Source: an uncultured Bacilli bacterium (GTDB lineage Bacteria > Bacillota_I > Bacilli_A > RF39 > UBA660). Taken from it: DNA of 64,000 nucleotides. Of this stretch, positions 54,309-56,918 are shown piece after piece. Location: contig CAKOQD010000001.1 in the NCBI GenBank assembly GCA_934101185.1, positions 25,681-89,680 on the forward strand. The letters are read 5' to 3'. A model generated the notes under the pieces. It was not told the DNA's origin and searched no databases. It worked only from the letters and a program-made list of their open reading frames with translations. Every line of letters begins with the position of its first letter. Positions within the stretch are counted from its first letter, which is position 1. The position numbers and the translations under genes are program-made.

Positions 54309-54485
54309 TATAATTTGCTATTCAATCAACACGATGAAACCAAAAATGAAAAGGAAAAGTACGAAAGTTGTAAAACATTTTTTTCCTTTCTTTCTATTTT
54401 GCTGTGCCAGTTCTTTGAACTGGGTCAGTTTGGGAGAAAAAAAATAACAATTAGTTTATCATCTCCAAAGGAGCCACTGACTTCG

Positions 54486-56918
54486 TCAGTCCAGAGCGCC
54501 GGCCCCAAGAAGGACTGCGCGGGCGGAGGCGTCAGTGTTAGCGTAACCGTCGCTGAAGATGAAGTTGAAGGCACCGGCGACAGCACCATTAAAGAAGCTA
54601 CCGCCGCGCAGAACCCAAGGGTTGCCAGAGTACACGAAGTTGGCGTAATCTCCATACCAGTTACCTGTTTTTCCTGTTGGTGCCATTTCTTTTGTTGCAT
54701 CTCCTAGCTTTCCTCTTGTATATGAAATATTTGATGAAGCATCATAACTATATTTATCATAATATCTCTTACTTGGGAATGCATATGTTCCTGTAAATGA
54801 TGTACCACCATCATATAAGATTCCTGTAAATGCTGAGTTATAGTTGTTACTTGTTTGATATCCACTCATTTGTTGTCCATTGCTCCATACCATATTACCC
54901 ATCATATATTCGTGTGCTCCACCACTCATGTCATATACTCCATATACGTTTCCTGTAGTACTTGCACTTTGTCCTAACGCTGTTGTATATGAATAACATG
55001 TTGCACCACTTGTTGTTGAGCCTGCACTTTGTGGTCCACATCCTGTTGTATATGTATTTTTACTATTTATTGCTACTTCTTTATTTATTCCATATTTACT
55101 ATGTGATAGGTATGTTACAGCTCCCCATTCCATATTCTTCATCATATGGGTTTCATCAGTTGTTGCAAATCCATATTTATTTCCACTTTCTCTCATCTTT
55201 TGGATTCCATTAAAGAATGTTCCTACTTGTGCTCCTCTCCATGATGTTACATTTGGTTTTATTTGAGGTCTTATTGTTTGCAAGTTACATCCTGAACCTA
55301 CTGCATCACTGGTGTTAGGTGTACAACTAGTATCACTAGATACTTCAAACTTTCCTACCCAGATTCCTGTTAATTCTTCTCCTGTTTCTCTTACGTTGTT
55401 ATCATTTTTATCCCACCAGAATGCTGGATGGGTATATGTACTTGTTCCTGCTTTTAATCCTCCATTTGTTGTATCTGTACATGTTTCACTTGTACTACTA
55501 GTACCAGTAACATTATCAGTACATTTTATTGTACCAGTACTTGCTGTACCACTCTCAAACTTAACATTTATTTCTTGTGGTGTATTTGTATTAAGATATG
55601 TATAAGTATATCTTGGTACCCATACCCACATTGTATTTATATCACTCATTGGTATTGTAGTTCCTGCATCTGCTTTTAAATAAGCATCTCTATTGGCACT
55701 TGTAACTGTTACTGCATTTGCCCACATCTTATTATCATAATCATACCATTTATTAGCTTCTTTAGCATTATTACTATCTGCTTTCTTCCAACTATCACTA
55801 GTACTATCATAATATACTGGTATCATATTACTTGTTAAAGATGGTTCGTTTGCCCCACTCTTATCTAAGCTTTCAAATAATTTCACCTTATAATGATTAT
55901 CTTTAGTACCATTACCACGTTCAAGAGTAGTACTAGCCTTTAAATACACTGTTGGTCTAACTAAATAACTACTTGAATAACTACTTCTATAGTTTGATCC
56001 AGTTGTAACATTTAATGTATTCGCATAACTACCACTGTAACCTGTCATTAATAATTCATAACTTGCAGTAGAAGAACCAGTATATGTATAAGCAGCTCTA
56101 TTATATACACTATTATATAACCAATTCTTAGAATAACAACTACTATTATAACTATATATAGCAGTACTATGGCAACTACTATCAGCAGCATATCCATAAT
56201 CACTTGCATACATTAATCCAACCTTAGCACTTTGATATTGTGGATTATAAGAAGTAGACTTACTAGCTCTTTCTGCAGTATAAGCAGTTGACGCATTTAT
56301 ACTACTATAACTACTAGTTATACCAAGATAATAATTAGTATCAGCCATTAACTTTCTATACTTACTATTTATTGTATTATAATAAGTATTATTTAAATAA
56401 TAATATGAATAACTATCAGATAAATAAGAACTACTATACCATCTACCATAAGTATAACCATATGCTTTTAACACATTAAGTGGTTTTTCTCTTATAATCT
56501 TAACTCTTTCTTCAGTACCACCATTTCCATCATCAACAGTAAATACACCTATTATTCTCCATGTTTCATCATTAAAATCTATATAATTATTAACAGAATC
56601 ATTAGAACCACTATATCTATAATCAACTGAATCATATGTAATTTGTCCAGTCTTTACTTGATTAATACTAACAACCCCATCCTTACCCACTCTAGACTTT
56701 ACAACATCAGTTAATTTCTTTCTAGTAGCAGTAAGTTTTAACGTATTATCTGACACATAACTACTACTCCATTTTGCATAAGAATTAGTAACCATATAAG
56801 AAATAATACCAGTCAAAACAAGTATCGAACAACATACTAAAGTAAGTAAATACTTATTATATTCCTTTACATCTTTAAATAAAAAACCATATTTATCTTT
56901 ATTACTAGAAGTCCCCAT
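54486..56918 (-). CDS. secreted two-lectin-like-domain protein: TasA-type N-terminus, DUF1566/DUF6273-like domain, FGE/C-type-lectin-like C-terminal domain with VR3 (DGR target-like)
   Basis: Start MGTSSNK at 56918 after GGGAGG. 'DFNDETWRIIGVF', 'VGLMYASDYGYA' and 'LVRPTVYLKAS' are followed by the shared scaffold 'KWYDYDNKMWANAVTV ... GIWVGKFEVS ... GVYDMSGGAHEYMMGN'. Confidence 0.8.
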   Translation of the reverse strand: MGTSSNKDKYGFLFKDVKEYNKYLLTLVCCSILVLTGIISYMVTNSYAKWSSSYVSDNTLKLTATRKKLTDVVKSRVGKDGVVSINQVKTGQITYDSVDYRYSGSNDSVNNYIDFNDETWRIIGVFTVDDGNGGTEERVKIIREKPLNVLKAYGYTYGRWYSSSYLSDSYSYYYLNNTYYNTINSKYRKLMADTNYYLGITSSYSSINASTAYTAERASKSTSYNPQYQSAKVGLMYASDYGYAADSSCHSTAIYSYNSSCYSKNWLYNSVYNRAAYTYTGSSTASYELLMTGYSGSYANTLNVTTGSNYRSSYSSSYLVRPTVYLKASTTLERGNGTKDNHYKVKLFESLDKSGANEPSLTSNMIPVYYDSTSDSWKKADSNNAKEANKWYDYDNKMWANAVTVTSANRDAYLKADAGTTIPMSDINTMWVWVPRYTYTYLNTNTPQEINVKFESGTASTGTIKCTDNVTGTSSTSETCTDTTNGGLKAGTSTYTHPAFWWDKNDNNVRETGEELTGIWVGKFEVSSDTSCTPNTSDAVGSGCNLQTIRPQIKPNVTSWRGAQVGTFFNGIQKMRESGNKYGFATTDETHMMKNMEWGAVTYLSHSKYGINKEVAINSKNTYTTGCGPQSAGSTTSGATCYSYTTALGQSASTTGNVYGVYDMSGGAHEYMMGNMVWSNGQQMSGYQTSNNYNSAFTGILYDGGTSFTGTYAFPSKRYYDKYSYDASSNISYTRGKLGDATKEMAPTGKTGNWYGDYANFVYSGNPWVLRGGSFFNGAVAGAFNFIFSDGYANTDASARAVLLGAGALD
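54489..54662 (-). other. DGR-type variable region VR3 (3' end of 54486-56918) with intact stop-codon-spanning hairpin
   Basis: GC-rich patch encoding NWYGDYANFVYSGNPWVLRGGSFFNGAVAGAFNFIFSDGYANTDASARAVLLGAGALD. A 6-bp hairpin ACTGAC-GAA-GTCAGT lies at 54476-54490. Confidence 0.7.

Follow-up and report, generated by a model that had tools for sequence, protein, structure and literature searches.

A diversity-generating-retroelement-type variable repeat, probably an orphaned or silent target, in the chromosome of an uncultured gut Bacilli bacterium

Introduction

Surveys of diversity-generating retroelements (DGRs) begin at the reverse transcriptase (RT) and cover only a few kilobases around it (PMC8144416), so remote or orphaned DGR targets are systematically missed. 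Whether such a target can be recognized by itself, and whether it is still being rewritten, are the questions raised by a gene at 54486..56918 on the reverse strand of a 64,000-nucleotide stretch (the window) of contig CAKOQD010000001.1, from an uncultured Bacilli bacterium. In an initial annotation, the 3' end of this gene (VR3) was described as the best preserved of three candidate variable repeats (VRs) in the window, with the implication that it is a live DGR target. The present analysis supports the assignment of VR3 as a DGR-type variable repeat in a protein with a C-type-lectin (CLec) fold. VR3 is probably an orphaned or silent target, now static, in a locus reshuffled only by recombination.

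The target gene and its terminal island

The window is part of a bacterial chromosome with 27% GC, in which ftsA, ftsZ, leuS, spoIIIAH and tRNA genes are present. On the basis of the open reading frame (ORF) and its translation, the target gene encodes a product of 810 amino acids, with a probable ATG start at 56918 and a TGA stop at 54486-54488. The frame stays open upstream of this ATG as far as a TTG at 56975 (54486..56975, reverse strand), and the ATG-initiated product is called identically on at least 10 public contigs. From N to C terminus, the protein comprises a membrane anchor, a DUF6273-like domain, a conserved 400-residue module and the variable repeat. A Pfam search of the 810-residue protein gave no match, even at E = 10.

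VR3 was delimited to 54489..54659 (reverse strand) from its composition, from family entropy and from an alignment to the template repeat (TR) of a related locus, L032, and it encodes ...WYGDYANFVYSGNPWVLRGGSFFNGAVAGAFNFIFSDGYANTDASARAVLLGAGALD. At its 5' limit, alien GC-rich codons are found from 54647 and family hypervariability from about 54653. The last ~160 nucleotides form a compositional island with a sharp boundary, in which adenine accounts for 15% of the bases and GC at third codon positions (GC3) reaches 67%, versus 39% and 13%, respectively, in the rest of the gene. The codons of the island are CGC, GCC, TTC, TAC and AAC, whereas the rest of the gene prefers AGA, GCA, TTT, TAT and AAT.

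As initially annotated, the repeat ends directly before the TGA with GCAGTCCTTCTTGGGGCCGGCGCTCTGGAC (54489-54518, reverse strand), which occurs only once in the window, where 0 chance matches are expected. This end belongs to a GC-rich 3' block, GCCTCCGCCCGCGCAGTCCTTCTTGGGGCCGGCGCTCTGGAC at 54489..54530 (reverse strand), that is invariant among VRs of the same type and resembles the initiation of mutagenic homing (IMH) element of known DGRs. The scaffold CTCCGCCCGCGCAGT of this block is common to the VRs of sister species. At the equivalent position in L032 and L055, two related loci with complete DGRs, the last 30 nucleotides before the stop are identical between TR and VR, with 0 or 1 adenine change. 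Two other-frame ORFs over VR3, at 54315-54707 (forward strand) and 54425-54700 (reverse strand), were rejected as spurious; they are long because the GC-rich VR is poor in stops.

A new family of variable proteins

More than 7000 homologues of the C-terminal 460 residues of the VR3 protein are known, and no Pfam domain is recorded for any of them; some homologues of the protein carry PF03781, to which the VR3 protein itself has no match. In GTDB, the homologues come from metagenome-assembled genomes (MAGs) of uncultured gut Bacilli (Hadza, Brazilian, rabbit and mouse samples), with many paralogues per genome and varied N-terminal architectures. The entropy profile of 120 close homologues averages 0.53 bits per site across residues 1-400 and 1.57 across the last 60. 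About 19 VR positions in the family exceed 2.5 bits, and these alternate with the scaffold W.Y.D.A.F...PW..RGG....GA.AG.F.F.....G.A.....SARAV.

Complete DGR cassettes were found around three distant homologues with 40-48% identity to the VR3 protein (L087, L032 and L055). In L087, the target (35-1846) contains its VR at 1701-1816 and is followed by the TR (2034-2149), a MutS_I-like ORF, bAvd and the RT. The bAvd protein matches PF22296 (E = 1e-19), and the RT displays the motifs IGNYTSQ..AN and YMDD. The L032 and L055 cassettes are similar. Changes from TR to VR fall at adenines in 10 of 10 cases in L032 and in 17 of 18 in L087. Loci L183 and L186 carry the MutS-like (MSL), Avd and RT genes in the same order as L087, and the small MutS domain I-like ORFs between TR and avd lie at L087:2467-2769, L183:4305-4667 and L186:2898-3317. 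An MSL-containing DGR arrangement has been described as 'architecture D' by Wu et al. 2018 (PMC5758913), and L087, L183 and L186 share its order of target-VR, TR, MutS_I-like gene, bAvd and RT; none of these components was found in the VR3 window or its neighborhood.

VR3 can be aligned codon for codon with the VRs of the L032, L055 and L087 cassettes. Family hypervariability tracks AAC/AAT codons, as 14 of the 15 asparagine codons in the L032 TR align to family sites above 2.5 bits. The L087 TR also matches the VR of L056, which belongs to the same MAG but to a different contig, and TR adenines account for 19 of the 21 mismatches. The VR3-protein family therefore includes remote paralogues that are targeted in trans.

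The predicted fold points in the same direction. An AlphaFold2 model of the last 460 residues, built from 125 sequences, has a pLDDT of 84 and a pTM of 0.90, with pLDDT values of 78-96 within the VR. In a Foldseek comparison with the PDB, the best match of this model is TaqVP of Thermus aquaticus (5VF4, E = 1e-6, probability 1.0), followed by Mtd of Bordetella phage BPP-1 (1YU0-4, E = 2e-3 to 1e-2) and then by FGE-like domains. Global TM-scores are low (0.36-0.45) because the compared proteins are multidomain. When PDB sequences were searched with the family profile, 5VF4 was the sole match (E = 0.1), and the same search with the single VR3 protein returned none. These fold matches, together with the scaffold/hypervariable pattern in the family, favor the CLec-type layout that had been read from the encoded repeat.

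Like TaqVP, Mtd (1YU0) and the FGE-sulfatase-type targets, VR3 is a C-terminal VR of about 50 residues; as in VRs of the TaqVP/Mtd type, an invariant scaffold (W, PW, RGG, GA.AG.F.F and ARAV in VR3) is interleaved with hypervariable Asn-derived positions. Unlike those targets, the VR3 protein has no Pfam sequence match, aligns with the low TM-scores given above and contains a long extra conserved module, and its family has varied N-terminal architectures and many paralogues per genome. The VR3-protein family is a new family of CLec-fold DGR targets outside Pfam coverage, of which genomes of uncultured human-gut Bacilli each carry several copies.

A quite different explanation is that VR3 has no relation to DGRs and is the tip of an ordinary recombining hypervariable surface protein, its GC island having arisen by horizontal transfer or protein-level selection. 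No TR or RT has been found for VR3, its present-day diversity is visibly recombinational (see below) and no Pfam model matches the protein, all of which would fit such an explanation. It is nevertheless largely refuted and has very little probability left, given that homologous VRs adjoin TRs with adenine-only changes, that variability is confined to positions corresponding to Asn AAC/AAT codons in the TRs of relatives, that the synonymous codon choice is alien beyond what the amino acids dictate, that DGR variable proteins are the best fold matches and that a hairpin of the target type is found in the canonical position.

The stop-codon hairpin

That hairpin, or cruciform, had been noted initially and is present at 54476..54490 (reverse strand), where ACTGAC-GAA-GTCAGT forms a perfect 6-bp stem with a GAA loop and overlaps the TGA stop. 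In DNA folding, the stem appears in both the minimum free energy and the centroid structures, and its 71-nucleotide context is not exceptional alone (z = -1.1). The hairpin is also present in L003, L018 and L024, alleles with different VRs.

It gains weight from the family comparison, in which the position is kept and the stems vary. In L032 and L055, a hairpin of 9-10 bp (GTAGCAAAC-NNNN-GTTTGCTAC) starts 1-2 nucleotides before the stop, and the TR copies lack it. A perfect stem of 7 bp or more, beginning between positions -3 and +1 relative to the stop codon, was detected in 19 of 75 family members, versus 38 of 677 control ORF stops (p = 3e-7). These stems represent at least eight unrelated sequences, some with GAAA or GAGA loops, and analogous stop-spanning hairpins with other sequences are found in L032, L055, L042, L035-37, L043, L057, L066, L073, L078, L082 and other loci. 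The family pattern agrees with the published view that the structure of the stem matters and not its sequence.

Like VR3, the BPP-1 target (IMH plus hairpin/cruciform; Guo et al. 2011, PMC3240598) has a GC-rich VR end followed by an inverted repeat containing the stop. However, functional phage DGR targets have GC-rich stems of 7-10 bp with a GRNA tetraloop, and homing is already crippled when the BPP-1 stem is shortened by 2 bp (PMC3240598). The predicted VR3 hairpin has a 6-bp stem with 50% GC and a 3-nucleotide GAA loop. The proposal that the GC-rich block and the hairpin mark VR3 as a target is supported by their position, which is that of bona fide family targets, whereas the stem is shorter and weaker than those of functional phage targets. 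A role for the hairpin in the recognition of VR3 may be inferred.

Alternatively, the hairpin could be a transcript-stabilizing or terminator stem, or merely a preferred insertion site for an IS256-family insertion sequence (IS), and not a DGR recognition element. The departure of the stem and loop from the phage pattern, the unexceptional folding score of its context, the presence of IS ends in or just after the hairpin at 6-7 loci and the lack of a clear hairpin in L087, a bona fide cassette, would all be compatible with this proposal. It is nonetheless improbable, since the L032 and L055 cassettes, with TR and RT, have hairpins at the same position that are missing from their TRs, and since the family stems vary in sequence with their position fixed. 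The terminator variant was rejected separately: no T-run follows the stem, and a terminator scan gave no match.

Paralogous repeats and scaffold types

The other two repeats in the window are VR1 at 15949..16125, which ends the gene at 15949..18630, and VR2 at 25119..25300, which ends the gene at 25119..27824; both were defined by alignment and are on the reverse strand. Like VR3, they are compositional islands at the ends of their genes. VR2 represents a second scaffold type: synonymous scaffold codons differ between VR2 and VR3 at 62% of positions, compared with 14% for the gene body. The two types, A (...TGGGTTNTGCGCGGCGG...CTCCGCCCGCGCAGTCCTTCTTGG) and B (...TGGTTCNTCCGTGGTGGG...CTCTGCTCGTGCCGTGCTT), both of which are present in sister species, are separated by linked non-adenine differences such as TCC GCC CGC versus TCT GCT CGT. 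Because of these linked non-adenine synonymous differences among VR1, VR2 and VR3, a single common TR is impossible. Synonymous differences of 0.07-0.14 in VR scaffolds versus 0.12-0.20 in gene bodies did not discriminate whether a TR still homogenizes the type-A scaffold.

VR3 is, as initially noted, the only one of the three copies without a fused IS. At VR1, an IS256-family end, GACCCTTT(T/C)CACTTA(A/T)CTGTGT(C/T)TGAC, abuts the repeat just past the stop, from 15945, and belongs to an internally deleted element at 15424-15945 recognized from its IS ends and a C-terminal transposase fragment. At VR2, an IS256-family end at 25111 interrupts the 3' arm of the hairpin after GAAGTC, with a transposase fragment downstream at 24368-25027.

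Each of the 6-7 copies identified has the left end of this IS256-family element, GACCCTTTTCACTTAACTGTGTCTGAC, immediately 3' of a family VR and in a constant orientation; some ascertainment bias remains, as the loci were selected for their target genes. In addition to the two copies in the window (15424-15945 and 24368-25111), these ends are located at L016:6645, L018:4964, L024:8250, L025:10922 and L027:~10790. The junctions differ, falling after GACG, GAAG, GAAGT or GAAGTC or further downstream, in or just past the stop-codon hairpin. Most copies at VRs are remnants, consisting of a solo end or an N- or C-terminal transposase fragment. Insertion at DGR target hairpins could be structure-directed, and, if the association is true, the DNA structure at DGR targets would be readable by another mobile element.

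Search for a donor

A TR predicted for VR3 would be adenine-rich, with a scaffold of about ...GGTAACGCTAACAATAACAACTCCGCCCGCGCAGTCCTTCTTGG..., and would differ from VR3 only at TR adenines. Such a TR, which the initial annotation anticipated, was found neither in the window nor in the 10 kb beyond each of its ends, nor in the related loci or the viral and metagenome scans described here. Within the window, no fourth copy of the repeat was detected by blastn (word size 7), and no YxDD or IGxxxSQ motif is present in any of the six frames. When the RT, Avd and MSL proteins of relatives were used as tblastn queries against the window and 37 related loci (493 kb in all), nothing was returned at E <= 1. 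The 10 kb past each window end contain no RVT_1 gene. In 18 loci from three sister species, taken with 10-kb flanks, there is one VR each and no TR or RT.

Larger collections were scanned with patterns specific to the TR. Degenerate patterns derived from VR1 and VR3 had 0 matches in genome contigs and 0 in viral contigs, and an adenine-restored guess at the TR, GGNAACGCNAACAATAACAACTC, had 0 viral matches. Of two adenine-free 3' scaffold patterns, one had 0 matches and the other a single match, in L182, attributed to chance. Among 80 viral loci encoding related RTs nothing resembles VR1-3, and the INPHARED phage collection contained no DNA or protein match. Two metagenome matches of the TR guess (L093 and L094) were rejected as donors because they fall by chance in an unrelated gene of a GC-rich organism. 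As a separate observation, the proteins encoded at L093:1-300 and L094:12950-13100 are near-identical, with C termini that differ block-wise (YYFNFNFF vs HCANNNLF; GYYYASN vs YDYNADN) and that look like another DGR-type variable repeat.

These results bear on the main competing explanation, in which VR3 is a live remote target, diversified in trans, rarely or conditionally, by a DGR elsewhere in the genome, with one selected VR allele dominating the samples. Trans targeting is known within the family from the L087 TR and the L056 VR, and the IMH-like block and hairpin of VR3 are intact, unlike those of VR1 and VR2. Cellular remote-target DGRs (Treponema denticola, Legionella and cyanobacteria) likewise have several paralogous targets scattered away from the RT. 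However, VR1-3 differ from these in comprising at least two scaffold types that one TR cannot serve and in showing no population-level diversification. Neither the window nor the sister-species loci have an RT or TR within 10 kb, and the TR-specific scans of viral and metagenome collections gave nothing relevant.

Variation at VR3 among assemblies

A live target would be expected to vary between strains. Independent assemblies were compared using the neighboring spoIIIAH as an unbiased anchor. VR3 is identical in L001/L004, L002, L006, L007 and L011, and differs by one base (54622 A>G, AAC>AGC, N>S) in L005 and L009; L005 is only 98.4% identical over 13 kb. In L007 and L011, there are 36 and 23 mismatches, respectively, in 54840-55131 and 0 in the VR. 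In the 90%-identity protein cluster, 11 of the 13 full-length members, representing ~20 contigs from different hosts and studies, have the VR in common apart from the N/S site and a singleton Y>S change (TAT>TCT), whereas the upstream sequence differs by 0.8-3.3%. Stated for 10 orthologues, 0-2 of 57 residues differ in VR3 versus 0.8-3.3% upstream, and 0-1 nucleotides differ across assemblies. The hypervariability that the initial annotation led one to expect was thus not seen among assemblies that differ by 1-3% elsewhere, as judged from consensus sequences, and with no TR found in the areas searched and a repeat invariant but for the N/S site and the singleton, the implication that VR3 is a live target was not borne out.

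The variation that does exist is of another kind. P0366, P0368 and L003 have exchanged the whole C-terminal part for a cassette that carries a type-B VR. Members of the VR1 and VR2 clusters swap the whole C-terminal part in the same way (P0377, P0379-381), and in P0001 and L007 the VR3 cassette is fused to an N-terminal region with the architecture of the VR1 gene. From these whole-cassette replacements, present diversity at the VR loci is recombinational.

Two further patches of hypervariability were observed in the VR3 protein upstream of the repeat, at 54840-54915 (residues ~319-343 of the 460-residue module) and at 54720-54735 (residue ~380), where H319, Q338, S340, Y343 and N380 exceed 2.5 bits. 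Their composition is ordinary and AT-rich, and so they are not DGR-written. The patches differ block-wise between L007/L011 and the window, consistent with gene conversion between paralogues.

Structural variation between strains is also concentrated in the region upstream of spoIIIAH (L003:8187-9755, L012:1-310, L008/L010:605-826). One strain has a 522-residue allele with a type-B VR at this site, and another has a DUF6273-type gene without a VR. Some assemblies have an additional sigma-70 region 4/GerE gene that separates spoIIIAH from the Germane-domain gene.

Origin and present state of VR3

The most probable explanation takes VR3 as the C-terminal repeat of a CLec-fold surface protein with the following history. 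The RNA of a GC-rich TR would have been reverse-transcribed with random misincorporation at adenines, and the cDNA, substituted for the 3' portion of the gene as far as the GC-rich invariant block, would have written VR3 by mutagenic retrohoming, with the stop-codon hairpin marking the target by its structure. None of the donor components (TR, Avd, MutS-like protein and RT) is nearby, and VR3, the same in ~20 contigs whose flanks diverge by up to 3%, would be a remote or orphaned target that is effectively frozen. Allelic diversity at VR3 and the paralogous loci now comes from recombinational swaps of whole C-terminal cassettes between paralogues. In this account, the creation of VR3 by retrohoming is an inference, and the donor would be lost or silent, not merely distant.

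Several points weigh against a static, donorless VR3, and some of them favor a live remote target. Cellular DGR targets more than 100 kb from their RT have been documented (PMC5758913), and the ~84 kb inspected belong to a contig of 284 kb or more, so that the remaining genome could hold a DGR. The assemblies are consensus sequences, in which low-frequency VR variants within a sample would be missed, and strong purifying selection can mask DGR activity (PMC8144416). Both point variants in VR3 (AAC>AGC and TAT>TCT) are at adenines, and only there, as a rare DGR event would give. Finally, the GC-rich synonymous scaffold, with its GC3 still at 67%, has not decayed in an AT-rich genome, which is easier to explain if a TR refreshes it now or did so recently. 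Against this stand the constancy of VR3 beside diverging flanks and the incompatibility of VR1, VR2 and VR3 with one TR, and a live remote target is accordingly considered possible but doubtful.

A variant of the orphaned or silent target may also be considered, in which DGR-written cassettes in this clade of gut Bacilli have been uncoupled from the retroelement and are used as a silent-cassette system, with recombination shuffling whole C-terminal modules and their fixed VRs among paralogous surface-protein genes. The IS256-family element would insert specifically, and in one orientation only, in or just past the target hairpin, and would so parasitize or inactivate DGR target sites in a structure-directed manner. 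This variant is offered as a rather unlikely extension.

With VR3 as a probably orphaned or silent target, the locus provides a concrete case of what becomes of a target after loss or silence of its retroelement: apparently frozen and then reassorted by recombination. It also indicates that a DGR footprint is recognizable from the target side alone, from an alien GC-rich and adenine-poor codon island, a scaffold/hypervariable pattern and a stop-spanning hairpin. The kind of element is well known; moderate interest attaches to its probable orphan state, to the swapping of cassettes and to the repeated insertion of an IS at the hairpin.

A fourth compositional island

One more GC-rich, adenine-poor island was observed in the window, at 28060-28200 on the reverse strand, in the C terminus of the ORF at 28013..29494. 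Its GC3 is 0.5-0.8 and its adenine fraction 0.16-0.27, compared with 0.13-0.27 and 0.4-0.5 in the surroundings. No repeat partner was found for it in the window. The island spans residues ~430-470 (LLPQVSGNSFNVFDVRSNCYVYDLSSVNGYEHAVRPVLYL) of a DUF6273-like protein (a weak Pfam match, E = 1e-3), and looks like the variable repeat of a second, unrelated class of DGR target.

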